Of a stretch of DNA of 12,534 nt, positions 1,876 to 12,534 are shown piece by piece; positions within the stretch are counted from its first letter, which is position 1, and every line of letters begins with the position of its first letter. The notes beneath the pieces were generated by a model. It had not been told where the DNA came from and did no database searches. It saw only the letters and a program-made list of their open reading frames with translations. This stretch comes from a virus (taxonomy: Duplodnaviria > Heunggongvirae > Uroviricota > Caudoviricetes): the IMG/VR virus record IMGVR_UViG_2600254997_000018. One strand, given 5' to 3'. Both the position numbers and the translations under genes were made by a program.

Positions 1876-2301
1876 TTAGTGCATCACCACAGCATTCCCT
1901 GCCGGGCCGCCGCGATTCATCTGGTCATACAAAACAACCGCTGACGCAACAAAATCATCGACATCCTTCACCAGCCGATCCCTCCGTTCGACAATCTCAC
2001 GGTAATATTCAGAACTGTGGCTGCGCATACGGGCCACCAGCAGAGGCGGCATTGCCTTTTCGATCGCCGGTAACAGAGCCTGCATTTTTTCAACAGCATC
2101 AGGGGTGTCTTTATCCAGCCAACGGAAAATTTTCTGGGTATTACGAGCCAGGGCTTCCGGATGGCTGTCGTCGTACAGTTCCGGGAACGTCATCCCCAGT
2201 TCGAAATAAGTCCGGGCTATTTCAGCTGCAGGAACTTTCTCACCATCAGGATATGCCCAGGCATTCATCGCCATGCGGATGTGCTCATGTTTGATTTTCA
2301 T
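1876..2301 (-). CDS. ydaT: YdaT-like prophage protein (occupies the CII-like position)
   Basis: 141-aa ORF starting MKIKHEHI, immediately downstream of and overlapping the ydaS-like gene by 17 nt, as in Rac ydaS-ydaT. Assignment is from recalled similarity and synteny. Confidence 0.75.
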   Translation of the reverse strand: MKIKHEHIRMAMNAWAYPDGEKVPAAEIARTYFELGMTFPELYDDSHPEALARNTQKIFRWLDKDTPDAVEKMQALLPAIEKAMPPLLVARMRSHSSEYYREIVERRDRLVKDVDDFVASAVVLYDQMNRGGPAGNAVVMH

Positions 2302-2608
2302 GAATCATTTGCCTCTTGATGCTTCGGGTATGATCGTTTTCGTCATTTGGTTGCTTCATCGACATATTCTGCGAATAACATGACGAGCGTCGTAAGTATG
2401 TCCAATCAACATCAGGACGAAGTTCTTCACACAGGACACCACCTTTTGTTGCTCGTTCAATCGCAGGACATCTCTCAGCAGGCAACTGACGTACACCTTT
2501 GATCCATTGATTTACGCTTGGAGGAGATACACCTAAAAGCCTAGCCATTGCTGATTGCCCACCGACAACAGCACAAGCTCGTTTGAATGAATAGTTATCT
2601 TTTTTCAT
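2285..2608 (-). CDS. ydaS: YdaS-like Cro-type HTH DNA-binding protein
   Basis: Sequence MKKDNYSFKRACAVVGGQSAMARLLGVSPPSVNQWIKGVRQLPAERCPAIERA closely matches recalled Rac YdaS. Start placed at ATG 2608 (GGAG Shine-Dalgarno 8 nt upstream) rather than the track's GTG at 2629. Divergent from the repressor gene. Confidence 0.8.
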   Translation of the reverse strand: MKKDNYSFKRACAVVGGQSAMARLLGVSPPSVNQWIKGVRQLPAERCPAIERATKGGVLCEELRPDVDWTYLRRSSCYSQNMSMKQPNDENDHTRSIKRQMIHENQT

Positions 2609-2629
2609 CGAATGAACTCCAAAAAACAC

Positions 2630-2732: not shown

Positions 2733-3209
2733 ATGCTTAGTGGTAAAGACTTAGGCCGAGCGATAGAGCAGGCCATTAACAAAAAAATTGCATCAGGAGC
2801 CGTCAAATCAAAGGCGGAAATCGCACGTCATTTCAAAGTCCAACCACCATCAATCCATGACTGGATTAAGAAAGGTTCGATAAGTAAAGACAAACTTCCA
2901 GAACTATGGCGTTTCTTTTCTGATGTGGTTGGTCCAGAGCATTGGGGGCTTAACGAATACCCCATACCAACCCCATCCACTTCAGATACAAAAAGTGAAC
3001 TTTTAGACATAAACAGCCTTTATCAAGCCGCCTCTGATGAAAAAAGAGCAATTGTGGCTTTCCTCTTATCTGGAAATGCTACGGAGCCTAGTTGGGTTGA
3101 TCATGACGTTCGCGCCTACATTGCCGCAATGGAAATGAAGGTAGCTAACTATCTGAAAAATCAAGAATCAAAACGGAAAAGCCAGAACATCACCAAGACA
3201 GGAACTTAA
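2733..3209 (+). CDS. racR: RacR-like prophage repressor (HTH, no recognisable S24 peptidase/LexA-type domain)
   Basis: 158-aa ORF (same length as Rac RacR) with HTH-like stretch SKAEIARHFKVQPPSIHDWIKKGSIS. Divergent from ydaS/ydaT-like genes as in Rac. Identity from synteny, length and recalled similarity, not a search. Confidence 0.65.
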   Translation: MLSGKDLGRAIEQAINKKIASGAVKSKAEIARHFKVQPPSIHDWIKKGSISKDKLPELWRFFSDVVGPEHWGLNEYPIPTPSTSDTKSELLDINSLYQAASDEKRAIVAFLLSGNATEPSWVDHDVRAYIAAMEMKVANYLKNQESKRKSQNITKTGT

Positions 3210-3283: not shown

Positions 3284-3346
3284 ATTAGGTCGCACCCAAA
3301 TCATTAGGCGCAGCCTATTGACAGGCAATTAGGCATTTCCTATAGT
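3284..3346 (+). promoter_or_regulatory. Sigma70-like promoter (TTGACA-17-TATAGT) with flanking and embedded TTAGGC operator-like sites; putative promoter of the DUF1391-dicF-dicB operon
   Basis: -35 TTGACA 3318-3323, 17-bp spacer, -10 TATAGT 3341-3346. Palindrome TAGGC-GCA-GCCTA at 3305-3317 abuts the -35, ATTAGGC at 3328-3334 sits in the spacer, and ATTAGG also occurs at 3284-3289. Confidence 0.5.
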
Positions 3347-3527: not shown

Positions 3528-3680
3528 ATGGATACTATCGAGCTTGGCAACAACGAATCTCTGGTATGTGGCGTGTTTCCCAATCAGGACGGCACGTTTA
3601 CCGCGATGACGTATACCAAAAGTAAAACGTTTAAAACCGAAGCTGCCGCGCATCGCTGGTTAGCCAGAAACGCTAACTGA
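3528..3680 (+). CDS. ydfA: DUF1391 small protein (YdfA/YdaF-like)
   Basis: 50-aa product MDTIELGNNESLVCGVFPNQDGTFTAMTYTKSKTFKTE closely matches recalled Qin YdfA. GAGG Shine-Dalgarno 7-8 nt upstream of ATG 3528. The track's 79-aa ORF from 3441 is an in-frame upstream extension. Confidence 0.7.
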   Translation: MDTIELGNNESLVCGVFPNQDGTFTAMTYTKSKTFKTEAAAHRWLARNAN

Positions 3681-3942: not shown

Positions 3943-3995
3943 TTTCTGGTGACGTTTGGCGGTATCAGTTTTACTCCGTGGCTGCTCTGCCGCCC
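3943..3995 (+). ncRNA. dicF: DicF small RNA homolog (Hfq-dependent ftsZ-targeting sRNA of Qin-type prophages)
   Basis: TTTCTGGTGACGTTTGGCGGTATCAGTTTTACTCCGTGGCTGCTCTGCCGCCC differs at one position (A to G) from the 53-nt K-12 DicF as I recall it. A T5 run follows at 3996-4000. It lies upstream of the dicB-like gene, as in Qin. Confidence 0.85.
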
Positions 3996-4169: not shown

Positions 4170-4358
4170 ATGGAAACGTTATTACCAAACGTTAATACGT
4201 CTGAAGGTTGTTTTGATATTGGTGTTCTGCTCAGTAACCGGGAGTTTACTGAAGATGCCATTAAGATGAGAAAATATGAACCTTATCTTCTCAATGATAA
4301 TTCCATACTTTCCAGAATTGCCCTTCTTGAACTTGGTATTATCGGAGAACAGCAGTGA
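4170..4358 (+). CDS. dicB: DicB-like cell-division inhibitor (MinC-activating small protein)
   Basis: 62-aa product METLLPNVNTSEGCFDIGV... matches K-12 DicB in length and N-terminus as recalled. GAGGA Shine-Dalgarno upstream of ATG 4170. The track ORF 4065-4358 is an upstream in-frame extension. Confidence 0.8.
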   Translation: METLLPNVNTSEGCFDIGVLLSNREFTEDAIKMRKYEPYLLNDNSILSRIALLELGIIGEQQ

Positions 4359-4543
4359 CTTCAGCGTTTGCACTGGTGATGACCGTTTTTCTTATAACGG
4401 GTGAGCCACAAAATGTGATTACCGGAATTTATGCCAGTAAAGAATCCAGCCTCCAGGCAAGAGACGAGCAAAAAATTTCTGGTGAATGCCTACCGGTAAA
4501 AAAAGTATCGCTGTACCTGAATAACGAAACACCGGCTGGATAA
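4355..4543 (+). CDS. Small membrane protein, YdfD-like (Qin lysis-protein position)
   Basis: 62-aa ORF with an N-terminal hydrophobic helix (SAFALVMTVFLITG). GTG start overlaps the dicB-like stop (GTGA) with GGAG Shine-Dalgarno 7 nt upstream; alternative ATG at 4379. Assignment by synteny (gene after dicB in Qin is ydfD). Confidence 0.55.
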   Translation: MTSAFALVMTVFLITGEPQNVITGIYASKESSLQARDEQKISGECLPVKKVSLYLNNETPAG

Positions 4544-4638
4544 CCCGCCAGCTATATTAACGCCATACCAACGGATTAAAAATGCCAGCAATGGCAGGGA
4601 TTCGTTCACCCTGAAATCTGTAATGAGGTTAAAACACA

Positions 4639-7110
4639 ATGAGTAAAATCTTTATTTGCGCTGCTATTCCTGACGAACAGGCCATAAAAGAAGATAGCGC
4701 TGTTGCGGTGGCCACTGCCATTGAAGCCGGTGATGAGCGTCGCGCACGCGCAAAATTTCACTGGCAATTTCTGGAGCAATTCCCGGCAGCTCAGGACTGC
4801 GCTTATAAATTTATTGTCTGCGAGGATAAACCCGGCATACCCCGCCCTGCCCTCGATTCCTGGGATACCGAATATATGCAGGAAAACCGCTGGGATGAGG
4901 AGTCAGCTTCCTTTGTACCGGTCGAACCAGAATCCGATCCGATGAACGTCAATTTTGACAAGCTGTCCCCTGAAGTACAGAACGCAGTCCTAGTTAAATT
5001 CGACACATGCGAAAACATCACCGTTGATATGGTGATTAGCGCACAGGAATTACTACAGGAAGACATGGCAACATTCGGCGGACATATCGTTGAAGCGTTG
5101 ATGAAAATGCCAGAAGTTAACGCCATGTATCCTGAACTTAAACTGCATGCCATCGGGTGGGTTAAGCATAAATGTGAGCCTGGCGCTAAATGGCCTGAAA
5201 TTCAGGCAGAGATGCGCATCTGGAAAAAACGTCGCGAAGGTGAACGCAAGGAAACCGGAAAATACACGTCTGTTGTTGATCTCACCCGCGCCAGAGTCAA
5301 CCAACAGAACACTGAAAACGCTGCTGAAAAAACCGGGGCTGTCACTGTTGCCATTCGCCGCGAATACAAACAGACATGGAAAACACTCGACAATGAACTG
5401 GCCTGCGCCCTCTGGCCCGGTGATGTGGATGCAGGAAACATTGACGGTACCATCCATCGCTGGGCGACAAATGAGGTTATCGACAAGGATCGCGAAGACT
5501 GGAAGCGTATCTCAGCATCAATGCGCAAACAGCCCGAAGCACTTGGCTATGACCGTCAGACTATTTTTGGCCTTGTTCGCGAACGTCCGATCGATATTCA
5601 CAAAGATCCCGTTGCACTGAACAAATATATCAGTGAATACCTGACGACAAAGGGCGTGTTTGAACATGAAGAAACAGACCAGAGCTCTACTGATGCTCTC
5701 CAGCCGTCAGCAGCACAAACTGCTCCAGTGGAGACGGCAGAATCCGATACTCAAAAAAATGAAATCCTGGTGGAAGCTGAACCATCTGTAGAGCGTGAAG
5801 GACCATTTTATTTCGTCTTTACCGATAAGGGCGGGGAAAAATACGGCAGGGCAAACAAACTTTCTGGTCTGGACAAGGCGCTGGCTGCCGGCGGTACCGA
5901 AATCTCAAAAGAAGAATATTTTGCCCGAAAAAATGGCACATACACGGGCTTACCGCAAAATGTGGATACCGCTGAAGATTCCGAACAATCAGAGCCGGTA
6001 AAAGTTACCGCTGACGAAGTAAACAAAATTATGCAGGCAGCCAATATCAGCCAGCCTGACGCCGATAAATTGCTTGCTGCATCACGTGGTGAATTTGTTG
6101 AAGGGATTAGCGACCCGAATGATCCGAAATGGGTGAAAGGGATCCAGAGTCGCGACGCTGAGGACCAGAATCAGCCCAACGTGAAACAAAATGAGCCAGA
6201 AGCGGAACAAAACAGCCCGGATACGCAACAAAACGGGCCAGAAGAACAACAACCAGAACCAGCAGTGCAACAGGAACTGGAAAAAGTTTGCACCGCATGC
6301 GGTCAGACCGGTGGCGGCAACTGTCCTGACTGTGGTGCGGTGATGGGGAACGCAACCTACCTGGAAACATTCGATGAAGAGAATCAGGCTGAAGCTCAGA
6401 AAAATGATCCGGAGGAAATGGAAGGCACTGAACATCTGCACAAGGAGAACACTGGCAGCGATCAGTATCACGCCAGCGATAATAAAACTGGCGAAACAGC
6501 AAATCCCTTAATTAAAGTGAACGGTCATCATGAAATCTCATCCACCAGCAGGTTGTGGCACCATCTGATGATTGACCTTGAAACAATGGGAAAAAATCCT
6601 GATGCGCCAATAAACGCTATAGCCGGTAAGTTTTTTGATCCGGCAACCGGAGAGATGGGGCCAGAATTCAGCAAAACTATCGATCTGGAAACCGCAGGTG
6701 GGGTCATCGATCGGGACACCATTAAGTGGTGGCTGAAACAGTCACGCGAAGCACAATCCTCCATTCTGACCGATGAAATCACGTTGGATGATGCACTGCT
6801 GCAATTCCGGGAATTTATCGACGAAAACTCCGGTGAATTTTTTGTTCAGGTCTGGGGTAACGGTGCAACTTTCGACAACGTGATTTTACGCCGTTCATAT
6901 GAACGGCAGGGGATCCCCTGCCCGTGGCGTTACACCAATGATCGCGATGTAAGAACGATGGTTGCTCTGGGACTGGTGATGGATTTCGACGCAAGAACGA
7001 CTATTCCATTCGAAGGTGAACGCCATAACGCCCTGCACGATGCGCGTTACCAGGCAAAATACGTTTCAGCCATCTGGCAAAAACTGCTCCCGAGTCAGGC
7101 TGATTTTTAA
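4639..7110 (+). CDS. Prophage exonuclease, 823 aa: RecE/exodeoxyribonuclease-VIII-like N-terminal region, CxxC-x7-CxxC zinc ribbon, C-terminal DnaQ-like (DEDDh) 3'-5' exonuclease domain
   Basis: Intact 2.47-kb ORF with GAGG Shine-Dalgarno. Motif DKLLAASRGEFVEGISDPNDPKWVKGIQ recalls RecE. C-terminal ~190 aa carry DEDDh motifs (MIDLETMG, WGNGATFDNVIL, HNALHDARYQ). Zinc ribbon encoded at 6289-6333, acidic/Gln-rich linker at ~6160-6280. Confidence 0.85.
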   Translation: MSKIFICAAIPDEQAIKEDSAVAVATAIEAGDERRARAKFHWQFLEQFPAAQDCAYKFIVCEDKPGIPRPALDSWDTEYMQENRWDEESASFVPVEPESDPMNVNFDKLSPEVQNAVLVKFDTCENITVDMVISAQELLQEDMATFGGHIVEALMKMPEVNAMYPELKLHAIGWVKHKCEPGAKWPEIQAEMRIWKKRREGERKETGKYTSVVDLTRARVNQQNTENAAEKTGAVTVAIRREYKQTWKTLDNELACALWPGDVDAGNIDGTIHRWATNEVIDKDREDWKRISASMRKQPEALGYDRQTIFGLVRERPIDIHKDPVALNKYISEYLTTKGVFEHEETDQSSTDALQPSAAQTAPVETAESDTQKNEILVEAEPSVEREGPFYFVFTDKGGEKYGRANKLSGLDKALAAGGTEISKEEYFARKNGTYTGLPQNVDTAEDSEQSEPVKVTADEVNKIMQAANISQPDADKLLAASRGEFVEGISDPNDPKWVKGIQSRDAEDQNQPNVKQNEPEAEQNSPDTQQNGPEEQQPEPAVQQELEKVCTACGQTGGGNCPDCGAVMGNATYLETFDEENQAEAQKNDPEEMEGTEHLHKENTGSDQYHASDNKTGETANPLIKVNGHHEISSTSRLWHHLMIDLETMGKNPDAPINAIAGKFFDPATGEMGPEFSKTIDLETAGGVIDRDTIKWWLKQSREAQSSILTDEITLDDALLQFREFIDENSGEFFVQVWGNGATFDNVILRRSYERQGIPCPWRYTNDRDVRTMVALGLVMDFDARTTIPFEGERHNALHDARYQAKYVSAIWQKLLPSQADF

Positions 7111-7168
7111 TGTTCAACCCGGATCGCCGCTAACGGCATATAGTTAGCGGCGGTTGTGAGATATAGCT

Positions 7169-7372
7169 ATGAGCAGCATATTTTTAACCGAAAATGAATT
7201 GCAAACGTTAACGGGCTGCAAATATGCAAGCCACCAGCGCAACTGGTTAATAAAAAATGGGCTTCCGTTCTATACCAATCGTAGTGGAAAACCGATCGTC
7301 AGTCGGGAACTGTTTACCTGTATAAAAACTTTACCACCACGTGAGGCTGAACCTGATTTCGGTGCGATCTAA
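7169..7372 (+). CDS. Excisionase-like protein (Xis, DUF4224-type)
   Basis: 67-aa ORF directly upstream of the integrase. Its stop TAA overlaps the integrase ATG (TAATG at 7370-7374), the classic xis-int arrangement. Confidence 0.6.
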   Translation: MSSIFLTENELQTLTGCKYASHQRNWLIKNGLPFYTNRSGKPIVSRELFTCIKTLPPREAEPDFGAI

Positions 7373-8397
7373 TGGGAAGACGAAGGAAAAATCCCGAACA
7401 CGAAAAATTACCGCCAAAGGTATACCCCAATAAATATAGTTATGTATGGAAACCGACATCCAGAGAATCTGTAACCTTAACTGCAATCGAGGATGGTTTA
7501 GCCGCATTATGGAAAAAGTATGAAGAAACGGTTAACCATCGCGATCGCGCAATGACATTTGGGCGTTTGTGGGAAAAATTTCTCGCCAGCGCCTATTACA
7601 GCGAGCTTAGTCCTAGAACTCAAAAAGATTATCTGCAACATCAAAAAAAGCTGCTGGCCGTATTCGGTAAGGTGCTGGCCGATTCTGTAAAACCAGAGCA
7701 CATCAGACGATACATGGACAAAAGAGGCGAGCAGAGTAAAACGCAGGCAAACCATGAAAAAAGCAGTATGTCGCGCGTTTATAGTTGGGGGTATGAGCGA
7801 GGATACGTGAAGGCTAACCCATGTGCAGGTGTAAGTAAATTCAAGGCCAAAAACCGCGAACGATATGTAACCGACAAAGAATACCAGGCAGTATTAAGCG
7901 TTGCACCTCTTCCTGTTTTTATCGCAATGGAAATTGCCTATCTGTGTGCAGCGAGGGTTTCCGATGTGTTATCGCTGAAATGGGAGCAGATTGGAAACGA
8001 CGGGATCTTTATCCAGCAAGGGAAAACAGGGAAAAAACAGATAAAAGCATGGAGTCCACGATTACAGGCGGCGATCGAAAAAGCAAAACAGTTACCAACA
8101 TCCGCCTATGTAATCAGCAATCAATACGGCAACCGATATATGTACAAAGGCTTTAACGAAATGTGGGTAGAAGCAAGAAATCACGCAGGCAAAATTTCAG
8201 GTATTTTAACCGACTTCACCTTTCATGATCTGAAGGCGAAAGGAATTTCAGACTATGAAGGAAGCAGCCGGGATAAGCAACTTTTCTCTGGTCACAAAAC
8301 CGAAGGGCAAGTGCTAATCTATGACAGGAAGGTTAAAGTTTCACCAACACTTGATGTCCCGTTACCTGAAAATATTCCAAGAAAATATTCCAAGTAA
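7372..8397 (+). CDS. Phage integrase, tyrosine site-specific recombinase
   Basis: 341-aa ORF whose C-terminal region carries residues consistent with the tyrosine-recombinase catalytic set (R in ARVSD, H/K in HDLKAKG, Y in LIYDRK). It ends 52 bp from the 3' end of tRNA-Ser. Confidence 0.9.
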   Translation: MGRRRKNPEHEKLPPKVYPNKYSYVWKPTSRESVTLTAIEDGLAALWKKYEETVNHRDRAMTFGRLWEKFLASAYYSELSPRTQKDYLQHQKKLLAVFGKVLADSVKPEHIRRYMDKRGEQSKTQANHEKSSMSRVYSWGYERGYVKANPCAGVSKFKAKNRERYVTDKEYQAVLSVAPLPVFIAMEIAYLCAARVSDVLSLKWEQIGNDGIFIQQGKTGKKQIKAWSPRLQAAIEKAKQLPTSAYVISNQYGNRYMYKGFNEMWVEARNHAGKISGILTDFTFHDLKAKGISDYEGSSRDKQLFSGHKTEGQVLIYDRKVKVSPTLDVPLPENIPRKYSK

Positions 8398-8449: not shown

Positions 8450-8539
8450 TGGCGGAGAGAGGGGGATTTGAACCCCCGGTGGAGTTGCCCCCACTCCGGT
8501 TTTCGAGACCGGTCCGTTCAGCCGCTCCGGCATCTCTCC
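8450..8539 (-). tRNA. serU: tRNA-Ser (anticodon CGA)
   Basis: Reverse complement reads GGAGAGATGCCGGAGCGGCTGAACGGACCGGTCTCGAAAACCGGAG...TCTCTCCGCCA: 7-bp acceptor stem, anticodon loop CU-CGA-AA, long variable arm, encoded CCA. Matches E. coli serU as recalled. Confidence 0.9.
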
Positions 8540-9726: not shown

Positions 9727-9892
9727 GCTATGAACGCCATCACCATTTTCCCCTCGATTATAAAACTTGAGTAATTCAGTAGTCTCCCCTCTTGCAACTC
9801 ACACCCAAAACTGCTTAACGAAAAGTTATTAATTTTCAATCATATTGCTATCAGGATCTACTTTTTTTCGCTGTGCTAGAAAGGGCGCATTT

Positions 9893-10838
9893 ATGTTAGC
9901 TCGTTCAGGGAAGGTAACCGTGAAGGTTACTGGCAACTCAAGCACCGCCCATGTTGCTAGCTTTATCGCTGATCCATCGACTATCGCCGCCACCAACAGT
10001 GATTTAAGTACCTTAAAGGCAACGGTTGAGGATGGCAGTGGTAACCTGATCGAAGGTCTCACTGTGTACTTCGCCTTAAAAAGCGGCTCCACCACATTAA
10101 CGTCATTAACAGCAGTGACCGATCAAAACGGAATCGCGACAATAAGCGTGAAAGGAGCGATAACGGGGAGCGTCACTGTAAGCACAGTCACAAGCAAACA
10201 GTAGATATATCGCTAGTGGCAGGCCCAGCAGACGCCTCGCAGTCCATCCTTAAGAACAACCAGTCATCACTGAAAGGGGACTTTACCGATAGTGCTGAGC
10301 TACATCTTGTTCTGCACGATATATCAGGCAATCCGATCAAAGTTTCTTAAGGGATGGAATTTGTGCAATCAGGTACAAACGTGCCCTATATGAAAATTAG
10401 CGCAATTGATTACAGTCAAAATATCAACGGTGATTACAAAGCTACTGTTACAGGAGGCGGAGAGGGTATCGCAACGCTGATCCCCGTATTGAATGGTGTT
10501 CATCAGACGGGCCTGAGTACCACGATAGAATTCATTAGCGCGGAAACCAGACCAATGACCGGTACAGTGTCAGTGAATGGTGCAAACCTACCGACAGCTT
10601 CATTCCCTTCGCAGGGATTTACCGGGGCGTATTATCAGTTGAATAATGACAGCTTTGCACCAGGAAAAACGGCGGCTGATTATTTGTTTCAAGCTCGGCC
10701 TCCTGGGTAGGCGTTGATGCTACTGGTAAAGTGACATTCAAAAATGACGGTGATAGCAATACTGTAATAATCACAGCGCCCCCAAGATCCGGTGGTGCTA
10801 TTTACCAAACAGTTCCGCATGAATCGCGTTCGGTGTGA
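9893..10838 (+). pseudogene. yeeJ: 3' remnant of a yeeJ-like inverse-autotransporter adhesin gene (bacterial Ig-like domains), frameshifted
   Basis: Ig-like-domain-type sequence (VTVKVTGNSSTAHVASFIADPSTIAATN..., ...ISGNPIKVS, EFVQSGTNVPY...) continues across at least three frames (shifts near 10200, 10350, 10700). Only ~1 kb lies between asnT and the next gene, versus ~7 kb for intact yeeJ. Gene name is from K-12 synteny. Confidence 0.45.
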
Positions 10839-10965: not shown

Positions 10966-11196
10966 TCAAATTCTCGCCAAAACACTTTTTAATGCCTTTG
11001 CGAATTCATCCAGACTTATATTGTCAATTTTTTGCCCAACGATGACTGACTCCGAAACATCGGCCATTGCGGGCCATCGCGTTTTGTAATCAGCATAAAT
11101 TGCAACAACAGAGGTATTATAGGCACTTGCCATATGTAATATTGAGGTGTCAGGAGTTATTGCAATATAAGCATCTTTTATGATTGCTGCTGAACG
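10966..11196 (-). pseudogene. C-terminal fragment of a glycosyltransferase family 9 (heptosyltransferase-like, yeeL-like) gene, cut by IS10
   Basis: About 76 codons (ITPDTSILHMASAYNTSVVAIYADYKTRWP...) resemble GT9 C-terminal regions. The track ORF's first 13 codons are IS10 end sequence, so the reading frame enters the IS at 11197. Confidence 0.45.
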
Positions 11197-11209
11197 CTGA
11201 GAGATCCCC

Positions 11210-12419
11210 TCATAATTTCCCCAAAGCGTAACCATGTGTGAATAAATTTTGAGCTAGTAGGGTTGCAGCCACGAGTAAGTCTTCCCTTGTTATTGTGTAG
11301 CCAGAATGCCGCAAAACTTCCATGCCTAAGCGAACTGTTGAGAGTACGTTTCGATTTCTGACTGTGTTAGCCTGGAAGTGCTTAGTCCCAACCTTGTTTC
11401 TGAGCATGAACGCCCGCAAGCCAACATGTTAGTTGAAGCATCAGGGCGATTAGCAGCATGATATCAAAACGCTACTGAGCTGCCCGTTCGGCTATGGCGT
11501 AGGCCTAGCCCGTAGGCAGGACTTTTCAAGTCTCGGAAGGTTTCTTCAATCTGCATTCGCTTCGAATAGATATTAACAAGTTGTTTGGGTGTTCGAATTT
11601 CAACAGGTAAGTTAGTTGCTAGAACCATGGCTCCTTTGCCGACGCTGAGTAGATTTTAGGTGACGGGTGGTGACAATGAGTCCGTGTCGAGCGCTGATTT
11701 TTTCGGCCTTTAGAGCGAGATTTATACAATAGAATTTGGCATGAGATTGGATTGCTTTTAGTCAGCCTCTTATAGCCTAAAGTCTTTGAGTGACTAGATG
11801 ACATATCATGTAAGTTGCTGATAGGTTTCCAGTTTTCCGCTCCTAGGTCTGCATATTGTACTTTTCCTCTTACTCGACTTAACCAGTACCAACCCAGCTT
11901 CTCAACGGATTTATACCATGGCACTTTAAAGCCAGCATCACTGACAATGAGCGGTGTGGTGTTACTCGGTAGAATGCTCGCAAGGTCGGCTAGAAATTGG
12001 TCATGAGCTTTCTTTGAACATTGCTCTGAAAGCGGGAACGCTTTCTCATAAAGAGTAACAGAACGACCGTGTAGTGCGACTGAAGCTCGCAATACCATAA
12101 GTCGTTTTTGCTCACGAATATCAGACCAGTCAACAAGTACAATGGGCATCGTATTGCCCGAACAGATAAAGCTAGCATGCCAACGGTATACAGCGAGTCG
12201 CTCTTTGTGGAGGTGACGATTACCTAACAATCGGTCGATTCGTTTGATGTTATGTTTTGTTCTCGCTTTGGTTGGCAGGTTACGGCCAAGTTCGGTAAGA
12301 GTGAGAGTTTTACAGTCAAGTAATGCGTGGCAAGCCAACGTTAAGCTGTTGAGTCGTTTTAAGTGTAATTCGGGGCAGAATTGGTAAAGAGAGTCGTGTA
12401 AAATATCGAGTTCGCACAT
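11210..12419 (-). pseudogene. IS10 transposase, frame-disrupted (N-terminal 266 aa intact, middle and C-terminal parts in other frames)
   Basis: ORF 11619-12419 matches IS10 Tnp from MCELDILHDSLYQF... but stops at ...AKEPWF*. The expected continuation VLATNLPVEIRTPKQ... is in another frame, and the C-terminal ...HFQANTVRNRNVLSTV...GYALGKL is in ORF 11210-11419. At least three indels within ~200 bp. Confidence 0.8.
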
Positions 12420-12480
12420 CTTGTTGTCTGATTATTGATTTTTCGCGAAACCATTTGATCATATGACAAGATGTGTATCT
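12412..12480 (+). ncRNA. IS10 antisense RNA-OUT (predicted from position in IS10)
   Basis: Established IS10 layout puts pOUT about 115 bp from the outside end, transcribing outward. The window shows the expected stem: CGCACATCTTGTTGTC (12413-12428) pairs with GACAAGATGTG (12465-12475). GATC at 12467-12470. Confidence 0.5.
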
Positions 12481-12534
12481 ACCTTAACTTAATGATTTTT
12501 ATCAAAATCATTAGGGGATTCATCAGGCGTAGCG

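Follow-up and report, generated by a model that had tools for sequence, protein, structure and literature searches.

Closest described systems

Exonuclease VIII, the RecE protein of the Rac prophage, carries a PF06630 (Exonuc_VIII) domain at residues 2-178 and a 5'-3' nuclease head of the PD-(D/E)XK type, which matches PF12684 at residues 615-850 (4.1e-28). The recE gene lies in the operon slot between kil/dicB-type genes and xis-int, and RecE has RecT as its partner. A second described relative, ydfE, belongs to the dicBF operon of the Qin prophage of E. coli K-12, which is repressed by DicA (PMC10448788). K-12 ydfE is truncated by IS2 and has lost the codons past 255. In strains with the truncated ydfE, RNase III and RNase E are credited with maturing the small RNA DicF (PMC10448788).

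The Rec modules of lambdoid phages have been described by Zheng, Casjens, Davidson, Amundsen & Smith (Zheng et al., Genome Res 2025, PMC12315714). Their article reports that DnaQ-like 3'-5' nucleases occur in such modules, and it includes a Tritos type of module that is nuclease-only, has no anti-RecBCD function and is Chi-rich in four of four phages. [quoted passage not shown] In the same article, an int-adjacent DnaQ-type nuclease gene counts towards a Rec module only where other Rec genes are contiguous with it.

DEDDh 3'-5' exonucleases are also found as stand-alone proteins, such as DexA of phage T4 and EcD of E. coli (189-227 aa). Rv2179c of M. tuberculosis is a stand-alone cellular exoribonuclease and the founder of the family PF16473. 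DexA is the product of a lytic-phage gene. When carried on a plasmid, EcD is reported to break down the T4 genome while sparing unmodified dsDNA, and to shield E. coli against T4 (PMC12153337).

The exonuclease locus

The window, the whole stretch of 12,534 nucleotides analysed here, carries the following features around the exonuclease gene.

2733..3209, plus strand: RacR-type immunity repressor in a Rac-like immunity region, 86% DNA identity to Rac
3318..3346, plus strand: sigma-70-like promoter TTGACA-17-TATAGT (11/12) beside the repressor gene
3944..3995, plus strand: DicF small RNA (Rfam, 75 bits) with its own terminator at 3978-3993
4170..4358, plus strand: dicB, cell-division inhibitor
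4355..4543, plus strand: DUF1482/YdfD-like small protein, directly upstream of the exonuclease
4639..7110, plus strand: modular scaffold with DEDDh exonuclease; RefSeq WP_000034469.1 ("exonuclease"), PHROG 2082
7169..7372, plus strand: DUF4224 protein in the excisionase position
7372..8397, plus strand: tyrosine integrase, 341-aa ORF; the identical locus is flagged as frameshifted by PGAP
8450..8539, minus strand: tRNA-Ser(CGA), prophage end and attachment site, followed by mtfA

The reading frame at 4639..7110 starts with ATG and gives 823 amino acids without internal stops (mechanical ORF list and translation), and the ORF claimed in a preliminary description of this DNA is real and intact. 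That description had placed the gene in the slot that recE-recT occupy in Rac, followed directly by xis-int and lacking a RecT/Bet-like neighbour. The slot was confirmed by comparison of the loci, and the exonuclease gene is followed directly by the DUF4224 gene and then int. All ORFs from the repressor to int were identified (DUF1391, DicF, DicB, DUF1482, the exonuclease and DUF4224); none is a SAP, Gam or SSB gene, and a tblastn search with RecT found no match in the window or in the whole Tritos genome. The gene had, however, been treated as an unusual object, and it is instead among the commonest prophage genes of E. coli, with existing PHROG, NCBI and Pfam labels.

RefSeq genomes of E. 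coli include identical copies of the protein. Of 5426 complete E. coli genomes, 4797 contain matches; full-length matches were counted in 3527 genomes, and thousands of genomes carry several intact copies of the gene each. The family includes copies in O157:H7 prophages, and the gene is present in the plaque-forming phages Tritos (87% identical), HannyBb and mEp460. The gene is already catalogued, its sequence and layout are ordinary for a lambdoid prophage, and its module type is one described by Zheng et al. (Genome Res 2025, PMC12315714). Literature searches combining ydfE, or dicB/ydfD, with exonuclease found no report on function.

The site at 3318-3346 is a candidate early-left promoter for DUF1391-dicF-dicB-ydfD-exo-xis-int; the analogous dicBF operon of Qin is under repression by DicA (PMC10448788). 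On the plus strand between this site and the ORF, no promoter-like site belonging to the exonuclease gene was found, and the sole terminator-like site before the gene is that of DicF. Because the gene lies in a repressor-controlled early-left operon without its own promoter-like site, it should be silent in the lysogen. The order repressor...dicB/kil-exo-xis-int, without SAP or Gam, is shared by seven loci, namely those of the window, Tritos, mEp460, PPompW, Evi, 689R5 and Chris1.

Domain organization of the 823-aa protein

Structure prediction suggested that the protein consists of folded domains strung on disordered linkers, as listed here from the N-terminus to the C-terminus. Residues 1-625 form a non-catalytic scaffold that bears the DnaQ/DexA-type head.

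4639..5253, plus strand: alpha/beta N-domain, residues 1-205, YdfE_N (PF27430), AF2 pLDDT about 90
5371..5667, plus strand: helical domain, residues 245-343, YdfE_C (PF27432), AF2 pLDDT about 90
5794..5949, plus strand: small beta-hairpin/helix (GPFY) domain, residues 386-437, pLDDT 80-90
6055..6513, plus strand: RecE-middle segment, residues 473-625, corresponding to RecE 449-591 at about 80% amino acid and 76% DNA identity
about 6160..6280, plus strand: Gln/Glu/Pro/Asn-rich linker, predicted to be disordered (composition; pLDDT about 30)
6289..6333, plus strand: CxxC-x7-CxxC zinc ribbon, C551, C554, C562 and C565, pLDDT about 64
6559..7077, plus strand: DEDDh 3'-5' exonuclease domain, residues 641-813, PF16473 (Rv2179c/DexA family)
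6574-6576, 6580-6582, 6874-6876, 7024-7026 and 7039-7041, plus strand: codons of the catalytic residues D646, E648, D746, H796 and D801

Residues 1-255 are of the YdfE type and share 89% identity with the pseudogene ydfE of K-12 Qin, with DNA homology to Qin over 4582-5404; the upstream dicF-dicB-ydfD genes match those of Qin as well. The two genes belong to one family, and they differ in that the gene in the window is intact. Both YdfE domains occur in 120 of 120 homologues of residues 1-380 among the matches listed (precomputed Pfam), and the protein was assigned to YdfE_N and YdfE_C through these Pfam labels of its homologues rather than through a profile score of its own. The N-domain (residues 1-205) is not common to RecE, where PF06630 stands instead, and the helical domain has a counterpart in RecE at about residues 278-350 (BLASTP). 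Conservation within the scaffold is strongest in the motif R-GPFY...GRANK...EIS-EEY-ARKNG (invariant alignment columns), which falls in the GPFY mini-domain; this domain is confined to YdfE-type scaffolds.

The C-terminal head (residues 641-813) matches PF16473, the Rv2179c-like 3'-5' exoribonuclease domain, over the entire profile (1-177/177) with E 6.5e-62 and a score of 208.8 bits against a cut-off of 27. PF12684 gave no match in the protein at E<=1. The motifs Exo I (DxE), Exo II (D) and Exo III (Hx4D) were all found, with D646 and E648 in MIDLET, D746 in WGNGATFDN, and H796 and D801 in HNALHD. Four of these five residues are invariant in an alignment of 24 homologues, and E648 is nearly so. 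The closest solved relative is the T4 DNA exonuclease DexA, with E 1.7e-6 for the single sequence and 8.3e-16 for the family profile; the sole other PDB match is weak (7t2s, "3'-5' exonuclease", E 0.047).

These results bear on several earlier statements about the architecture. The C-terminus had been read as DEDDh rather than the PD-(D/E)xK nuclease of RecE, and this reading stands: the Pfam profile assigns it to a nuclease fold, and the DEDDh residues are neither absent nor substituted. The description of the N-terminus as RecE-like needs to be revised, as residues 1-255 are YdfE-type and the match to the non-catalytic middle of RecE lies in residues 262-625. The ribbon CTACGQTGGGNCPDC (residues 551-565) is located exactly where it had been placed, and the acidic Gln/Pro/Glu-rich linker is borne out by composition (residues 506-549 are 23% Q, 20% E, 14% P and 11% N). 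Both do lie between the two halves of the protein as proposed, but the ribbon belongs to the segment shared with RecE, where it is found at C517-C531, and is not a new insertion; across the wider family it is optional.

Homologues also occur as stand-alone proteins. In ST64B and phiSTEC1575-Stx2k their genes likewise adjoin xis-int, and in Pseudomonas MP1412, Vibrio VP58.5 and Yersinia P840 no consistent association with an annealase was found. Production of a free head from an internal start at M644 of the 823-aa ORF was considered and dropped, as a Shine-Dalgarno sequence is absent upstream.

Relation to RecE and exchange of heads

Similarity to RecE is restricted to residues 262-625, equivalent to RecE 278-591 (BLASTP). 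It includes the zinc ribbon, and in its final 150 residues the identity is about 80%. At both the BLASTP and the DNA level, the homology to recE ends at codon 625 (RecE 591), which marks the head-swap joint, and no BLASTP similarity to RecE 592-866 was found. PF06630 is absent from the 823-aa protein. The NCBIfam exoVIII equivalog NF007259 gave 260 bits against a cut-off of 1269, with residues 453-625 alone matching profile positions 446-602. Judged from its sequence, the protein is related to RecE but has exchanged the head: it carries one of the 3'-5' DEDDh fold and has no annealase, where RecE has a head of opposite polarity and RecT as its partner.

The exchange of heads recurs in nature. 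The natural chimera P0243 joins RecE 1-592 (88%) to residues 474-823 of the present protein (head 80%), and phage 689R5 carries a RecE-like N-module with a DEDDh head at the same serU-mtfA locus. All four combinations of N-module and head occur. The architecture recurs in Citrobacter and other genera, with 38-60% identity, and it is also seen with either N-module. The swap joints fall in the disordered linkers and leave the domains intact. Elsewhere, the place of the DEDDh head on the scaffold is taken by a DNA exonuclease and probably by an annealase, and in Enterobacter, Klebsiella and Salmonella the ~780-aa proteins named "exodeoxyribonuclease VIII" have no nuclease domain. Homologue listings for single-domain queries contained no match longer than about 1.75 times the query, and full-length architectures were taken from a representative search.

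Chi sites and the Tritos-type module

Three Chi sites were found in the window.

6542..6549, minus strand: Chi GCTGGTGG, inside the exonuclease gene
2034-2041 and 7231-7238, minus strand: further Chi sites in the same orientation

These three co-oriented sites compare with 0.13 expected per strand in a window of 12.5 kb, of which the prophage part is about 8.4 kb. In Tritos the count is 9/2 against 0.86 expected. The locus resembles the Tritos-type module in its layout, in the nuclease gene adjoining int and, as far as about 8.4 kb of prophage can show, apparently in the enrichment of Chi, and it has an early-left nuclease gene without a SAP, SSB or anti-RecBCD gene. It differs in that the main text of PMC12315714 makes no mention of a chimera of the RecE/YdfE scaffold with a DEDDh head and assigns no mechanism to the module.

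Possible roles of the enzyme

The explanation that we favour, to which we give about an even chance, is that the gene encodes a repressor-controlled, lytic-phase 3'-5' DNA exonuclease that would process DNA ends, probably alongside host RecBCD and RecA. What the analysis showed directly is which domains are present, that all five catalytic residues are intact, where the swap joint lies, where in the operon the gene sits, and that SAP, Gam and SSB genes are lacking. After prophage induction, a Mg2+-dependent 3'-5' exonuclease activity of the protein would be directed at DNA ends, not at RNA. It would trim the 3' tails of linear phage DNA or of competing DNA, and the trimmed ends would become substrates for recombination by the host RecBCD-Chi-RecA pathway. 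The scaffold would serve targeting or partner binding, and the locus would be a Tritos-type, nuclease-only Rec module in the sense of Zheng et al. (2025). End-trimming for host RecBCD is suggested because an annealase and an anti-RecBCD protein are absent and the phage appears Chi-rich. The link is correlative, drawn from Chi enrichment (three sites in 12.5 kb) and from the missing Gam and SAP. Against this explanation stand the statements of PMC12315714, given above, on 3'-5' DNA exonucleases, on small Rec modules and on int-adjacent DnaQ-type genes, as well as the anti-T4 defence reported for a stand-alone homologue from E. coli (PMC12153337).

The substrate is the point on which an RNA-directed role has to be weighed. 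The head could be a 3'-5' exoribonuclease like Rv2179c that trims phage or host RNAs, such as the 3' ends of the dicF-dicB transcript or small RNAs. It shares with Rv2179c the PF16473 family, which is named for that enzyme, and the DEDDh fold; several databases label homologues "3'-5' exoribonuclease", and the gene shares its operon with a processed small RNA, DicF. However, Rv2179c is a stand-alone enzyme, and the likeness holds no pointer to an RNA substrate for the 823-aa protein. The PDB sequence searches, by single sequence or profile, gave no RNase chain at E<=1, with DexA as the only significant match; no chain named Rv2179c appeared at this threshold in the copy searched. DicF maturation, moreover, is attributed to other RNases where ydfE is truncated (PMC10448788). 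The head is exchanged on a DNA-enzyme scaffold with a DNA exonuclease and probably an annealase, and therefore a DNA substrate is favoured and the exoribonuclease role appears quite unlikely. Another candidate role is the scavenging of nucleotides, in which host or broken DNA would be degraded to dNMPs during lytic growth with no role in recombination. DexA has such a documented role in host-DNA scavenging according to PMC12153337, and the stand-alone homologue of ST64B and phiSTEC1575-Stx2k shares an operon with a 5'-deoxynucleotidase (YfdR-type). Lambdoid phages, in contrast, generally leave the host chromosome undegraded, the operon has no endonuclease to make entry sites, and scavenging would leave unexplained the fusion to a RecE scaffold and the exchange of heads with the RecE nuclease and a probable annealase. 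We consider it improbable.

A role in prophage defence or superinfection exclusion of the "HREX" type, in which the head would degrade the 5hmC DNA of incoming T-even phages as EcD does, is suggested by the reported anti-T4 activity of this homologue (PMC12153337), by EcD-like 189-aa proteins of the same family (38-40% identity to the head, E ~1e-35) and by the retention of the intact gene, in several copies each, in thousands of E. coli genomes. The head is a DexA homologue with intact catalytic residues, as described for HREX. The 189-aa proteins, which have Ala78 as described for EcD, were recovered with the 17-nt tail of the EcD forward primer; EcD itself was not among the retrieved homologues, and an exact scan with the 23-nt tail of the reverse primer gave no match. 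The EcD reverse primer as printed has one extra A relative to the recovered EcD-like loci. The residues that PMC12153337 ties to modified DNA set the head apart from EcD, which speaks against defence. Thr766 takes the place of the 5hmC-stacking Trp (DexA W152), and no more than 8 of 24 close homologues have Trp there, and the tetramer-forming DexA D90, which is Ala78 in EcD and whose loss gives the "dimer-only, modified-DNA-only" state, is kept as D718. T715 stands at the position of DexA S87, and the position of DexA D169 aligns to D782 in an uncertain alignment. In addition, EcD lacks the 625-aa scaffold, and the present gene should be silent in the lysogen. A defence role is unlikely. It is very improbable that the gene is a functionless mosaic of a recE-like gene and an int-adjacent stand-alone exonuclease gene, joined by illegitimate recombination and retained as a mere passenger of defective prophages. 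The PGAP frameshift flag at the identical integrase locus suggests that the window's own prophage could be defective, some copies are pseudogenes (K-12 ydfE and PPompW_132418), and stand-alone exonuclease genes do hold the same place next to xis-int. Nevertheless, full-length copies in 3527 genomes and in plaque-forming phages, conserved catalytic residues, recurrence of the architecture in other genera with either N-module, and joints that spare whole domains all speak against this reading.

A broader reading, which we regard as tentative and somewhat doubtful, would make the RecE/YdfE body a general recombination adaptor with interchangeable heads, namely the PD-(D/E)XK 5'-3' head of RecE, the DEDDh 3'-5' head of the present gene, or a Rad52-like annealase, which the ~780-aa proteins without a nuclease domain would carry. 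The DEDDh form would then represent a distinct phage strategy of 3'-tail trimming for RecBCD and Chi, in which phage ends would be fed to host RecBCD at Chi in place of the phage's own exonuclease-annealase pathway.

Significance

The gene family is present in most sequenced E. coli, often in multiple copies, including the prophages of O157:H7. For annotation, many entries named "exodeoxyribonuclease VIII" lack the nuclease of RecE, and some lack any nuclease domain. The natural head swaps provide ready material for studying the role of the long-unexplained N-terminal region of RecE. In this set, RecE 1-592 bears one or the other head, and the YdfE scaffold bears a DEDDh, PD-(D/E)XK or probable annealase head. 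If the proposed cooperation with RecBCD is true, it would explain why a normally anti-recombinogenic 3'-5' exonuclease is found in a recombination slot, and it would supply a concrete enzyme for the "nuclease-only, Chi-rich" strategy of lambdoid phages, which has so far been defined by genomics only.

Genomic setting of the exonuclease gene

The window covers the left arm of a lambdoid prophage, integrated into an E. coli chromosome at tRNA-Ser(CGA) and beside mtfA. The map below is based on the annotation of an identical locus and on our own scans of the window.

Features of the window (coordinates, strand, identity)
126-872, minus, IstB/DnaC-like ATPase
1876-2301, minus, YdaT
2285-2629, minus, YdaS/Cro-like
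2733-3209, plus, RacR repressor
3528-3680, plus, DUF1391
3944-3995, plus, DicF sRNA, complete, with its own terminator (Rfam 75 bits)
4170-4358, plus, DicB
4355-4543, plus, DUF1482/YdfD-like
4639-7110, plus, 823-aa ORF (exonuclease)
7169-7372, plus, DUF4224, in the excisionase position
7372-8397, plus, integrase, 341 aa
8450-8539, minus, tRNA-Ser

Past the tRNA-Ser gene lie host mtfA and tRNA-Asn, yeeJ fragments and an IS10 end. In DNA sequence, the immunity region resembles Rac (86% identity), and the dicF-dicB region together with the 5' end of the 823-aa ORF resembles Qin (89-92%). The prophage is thus a Rac/Qin mosaic, in which a Qin-type dicBF cassette comes under Rac-type immunity (RacR/YdaS/YdaT). 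The YdaS/YdaT pair (1876-2629, minus strand) faces RacR and occupies the place of cro and cII; toxicity of the pair on derepression has been reported in Rac.

An identical copy of the integrase locus is flagged as frameshifted by PGAP (1051 nt), and the record of phage 689R5 annotates the same 341-aa ORF as intact; the prophage may be excision-competent or defective in excision. Short ORFs at 9845-10710 (plus strand), which encode Big_1 and invasin D3 domains, are pieces of the inverse autotransporter gene yeeJ, which at this locus is a pseudogene with an internal stop in RefSeq. The IS10-type end (11619-12481) contains, on the minus strand, an ORF for a DDE transposase and, at 12412-12481 on the plus strand, the antisense RNA-OUT (Rfam 98.8 bits). 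At 10966-11235 (minus strand), an 89-aa ORF that weakly resembles the C-terminal region of a heptosyltransferase (Glyco_transf_9, E 4e-5) is probably a gene fragment.

Domain structure and relationship to RecE

The 823-aa ORF is genuine, with a reading frame uninterrupted across 4639-7110. The preliminary description had proposed a DEDDh nuclease at its C-terminus, and the last 180 residues indeed match the whole of PF16473 (Rv2179c-like 3'-5' exoribonuclease domain; E 6.5e-62). All residues of the DEDDh pentad are there (D646, E648, D746, H796 and D801); when 23 homologues of 55-82% identity are aligned with the protein, E648 is nearly invariant and the other four do not vary at all. The zinc ribbon CTACGQTGGGNCPDC lies exactly at the proposed position, nt 6289-6333, and is preceded by the expected linker, rich in Q, E, P and N. 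The proposed absence of an annealase partner also holds: all ORFs from the repressor to int were identified and none is an annealase, and RecT gave no tblastn match to the window, nor to any part of the complete genome of Tritos, a related phage.

The N-terminus, which had been called RecE-like, is the exception to a largely correct reading. The RecE N-domain PF06630 (RecE residues 2-178) is missing, and residues 1-255 are instead of the YdfE type, with 89% identity to the K-12 Qin pseudogene ydfE, a stump of the same gene family truncated by IS2. The recent Pfam families YdfE_N (PF27430) and YdfE_C (PF27432) are assigned to homologues of residues 1-380. Similarity to RecE spans residues 262-625 (RecE 278-591), at 38% overall and about 80% across the final 150 residues, a stretch that includes the zinc ribbon common to both proteins (CNACGQTGGDNCPDC at 517-531 in RecE). 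At the DNA level, homology to recE ends at window position 6512, corresponding to codon 625 of the ORF and codon 591 of RecE. A 2023 review assigns residues 564-866 of RecE to the nuclease domain and describes the remainder as "of unknown function"; the joint therefore falls approximately at the start of the RecE catalytic region.

AlphaFold2 modelling of the first 640 residues, from a 56-sequence alignment, predicts folded domains linked by disordered stretches.

Predicted organization of residues 1-640
1-205, alpha/beta domain, pLDDT about 90
245-343, helical domain, pLDDT about 90
386-437, small beta-hairpin/helix domain, pLDDT 80-90; its motif R-GPFY...GRANK...EIS-EEY-ARKNG is the best conserved of the scaffold
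458-498, helices, low confidence
548-572, zinc ribbon, pLDDT about 64
344-384, 438-456, 499-547 and 573-640, disordered linkers, pLDDT below 50

Interchangeable modules across the family

An exhaustive phmmer search against 1.84 billion representatives returned 10,571 relatives, the long ones of which were then scanned with Pfam. All combinations of N-module and head occur.

Combinations of N-module and head
PF06630 with PF12684 PD-(D/E)XK head: Rac RecE
PF06630 with PF16473 DEDDh head: P0243, P0245, P0252-P0254, P0262, P0264, P0273, P0279
YdfE type with PF16473 DEDDh head: 823-aa ORF, P0241
YdfE type with PF12684 PD-(D/E)XK head: P0255

The relative P0243 joins RecE 1-592 (88% identity) to residues 474-823 of the 823-aa ORF (80% identity). 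Phage vB_EcoS-689R5 carries a RecE-like N-module with a DEDDh head at the same serU-mtfA locus, followed by DUF4224 and int. The zinc ribbon is restricted to RecE-middle segments of the E. coli type, many other DEDDh-headed forms being without it, and only YdfE-type scaffolds have the GPFY mini-domain. On another YdfE scaffold, P0247 (702 aa), a different C-terminal domain at 442-702 (PHROG 26058) may be a fifth head type.

Another group of YdfE-scaffold proteins, of about 740-790 aa and from Enterobacter, Klebsiella, Salmonella and Citrobacter, has no recognizable nuclease domain and is named "exodeoxyribonuclease VIII" at NCBI (P0256, P0260, P0261, P0286, P0310 and at least 120 listed matches). 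Their C-terminal 240 residues contain ...INAEYMIMRATE-FGP-G--WG... and ...DGEAQKKSLTDA-KKALS-LGFSADVWLGLYD, which resemble both signature motifs of Rad52. Pfam Rad52_Rad22 (PF04098) gave a slightly sub-threshold match in four of five members, and hhalign placed both motifs in register with human RAD52, without statistical weight. The genes (for example, at 6001-8340 of Salmonella locus L009 and 6001-8370 of Enterobacter locus L011) are flanked by Gam-like and Sipho_Gp157 genes, and no other annealase or nuclease was found in their operons. On balance, we favor the view that these relatives carry an annealase head; they are probably misannotated scaffold-annealase fusions. The "RecE-2" proteins without a nuclease domain, mentioned with no function assigned by Zheng et al. 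(PMC12315714), may be the same group.

Distribution and gene neighborhood

RefSeq genes from strain 14EC007 and others match the 823-aa ORF at 100% identity, and one from O157:H7 EDL933 matches it at 99.9%. Of 5426 complete E. coli genomes, 4797 have matches to the gene, near full length in 3527; the matching places number 10,703, with a median of two per genome. Its family is PHROG 2082 ("exonuclease"). Copies 84-87% identical are carried by the plaque-forming phages Tritos, HannyBb, PhiR42_1 and mEp460 and by PPompW prophages. Tritos, mEp460, PPompW, Evi, 689R5 and Citrobacter phage Chris1 share the layout repressor ... dicB or kil - (ydfD) - exonuclease - xis - int, from which annealase and Gam are absent in all six.

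The DEDDh head domain is present in 581 phage records. As a stand-alone protein of about 190 aa, it takes the same last-before-xis slot in ST64B (L006, 4998-5567) and phiSTEC1575-Stx2k (L008, 5019-5591). These stand-alone homologues share an operon with YfdQ (DUF2303) and a YfdR-type 5'-deoxynucleotidase, an arrangement that hints at a connection to dNMP metabolism. Zheng et al. (PMC12315714) note sporadic DnaQ-type nuclease genes "very near int" and describe a "Tritos" module, a nuclease without SAP, SSB or anti-RecBCD, in four phages, all Chi-rich. The chimeric architecture of scaffold and DEDDh head is not discussed in the main text of that paper.

Proposed role and alternatives

The encoded protein combines an intact DEDDh active site with a RecE/YdfE scaffold. 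Its gene fills the recombination slot of an operon under repressor control, and a phage annealase and a RecBCD inhibitor are absent. Judged from sequence, the head would act on DNA. The T4 DNA exonuclease DexA is the only solved relative found for it by sequence (E 1.7e-6 with a single sequence, 8.3e-16 with a profile), and no RNase chain appeared at E<=1 among the solved-structure sequence matches. Natural variants of the scaffold also carry a DNA exonuclease, and probably an annealase, in place of this head, which likewise points to a DNA substrate. Expression would follow prophage induction, as suggested by the sole strong promoter-like site on the plus strand, which adjoins the repressor gene, by DicF's own terminator being the only plus-strand terminator-like site upstream of the exonuclease gene, and by repression of the homologous dicBF operon, ydfE included, by the CI-like DicA (PMC10448788).

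Finally, the enzyme would cooperate with the host RecBCD pathway, the weakest of the three steps. RecBCD requires ends that are blunt or nearly so; 3'-5' ssDNA exonucleases of the host can make these, and a phage 3'-5' exonuclease could likewise prepare them. Chi (GCTGGTGG) occurs three times, co-oriented on the minus strand (2034-2041, 6542-6549 and 7231-7238; 0.13 expected per strand), and is absent from the other strand of the prophage part. The second site lies inside the exonuclease gene, and the Tritos copy also holds one (27079); Tritos has nine top-strand and two bottom-strand sites against 0.86 expected per strand. These counts agree with a correlation between Chi abundance and missing anti-RecBCD reported in PMC12315714. 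The same paper holds that 3'-5' exonucleases mostly inhibit recombination and that one-gene modules are uncertain in function.

A defense role of the HREX type is improbable. The E. coli DexA homologue EcD is reported to degrade T4 DNA and to protect cells against T4 (PMC12153337), and EcD-like 189-aa proteins found through the primers of that paper are 38-40% identical to the head. By the paper's own determinants, however, the head is unlike EcD: it has Thr766 at the position of the 5hmC-stacking Trp, and it keeps D718 where EcD has Ala. A gene silent in the lysogen would, moreover, make a poor defense. Nucleotide scavenging, the other role of DexA, suits the 5'-deoxynucleotidase beside the stand-alone homologues and leaves the scaffold unexplained; we consider it no more probable than defense. 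An exoribonuclease, which we rate marginally lower, would suit the family name and the DicF neighbor, and nothing beyond these two fits it. That the protein is a passive by-product of mosaicism is very unlikely, given the conserved active site, the presence of the gene in viable phages and the recurrence of the same architecture in other genera at 38-60% identity.

The EcD-like 189-aa proteins (IMG/VR contigs L018, L023, L033, L036 and L039) start MIDTETLGNGPDAA... and have Ala78, as described for EcD in PMC12153337; the reverse primer in its supplement has one extra A relative to these loci.

Collectively, the gene is a catalogued and very common prophage gene, and its module type is already described. 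That an annealase may be among the scaffold's heads is an added suggestion. The added value is modest: this suggestion, a precise domain map with its swap joint, and a demonstration that the RecE/YdfE scaffold bears interchangeable heads.
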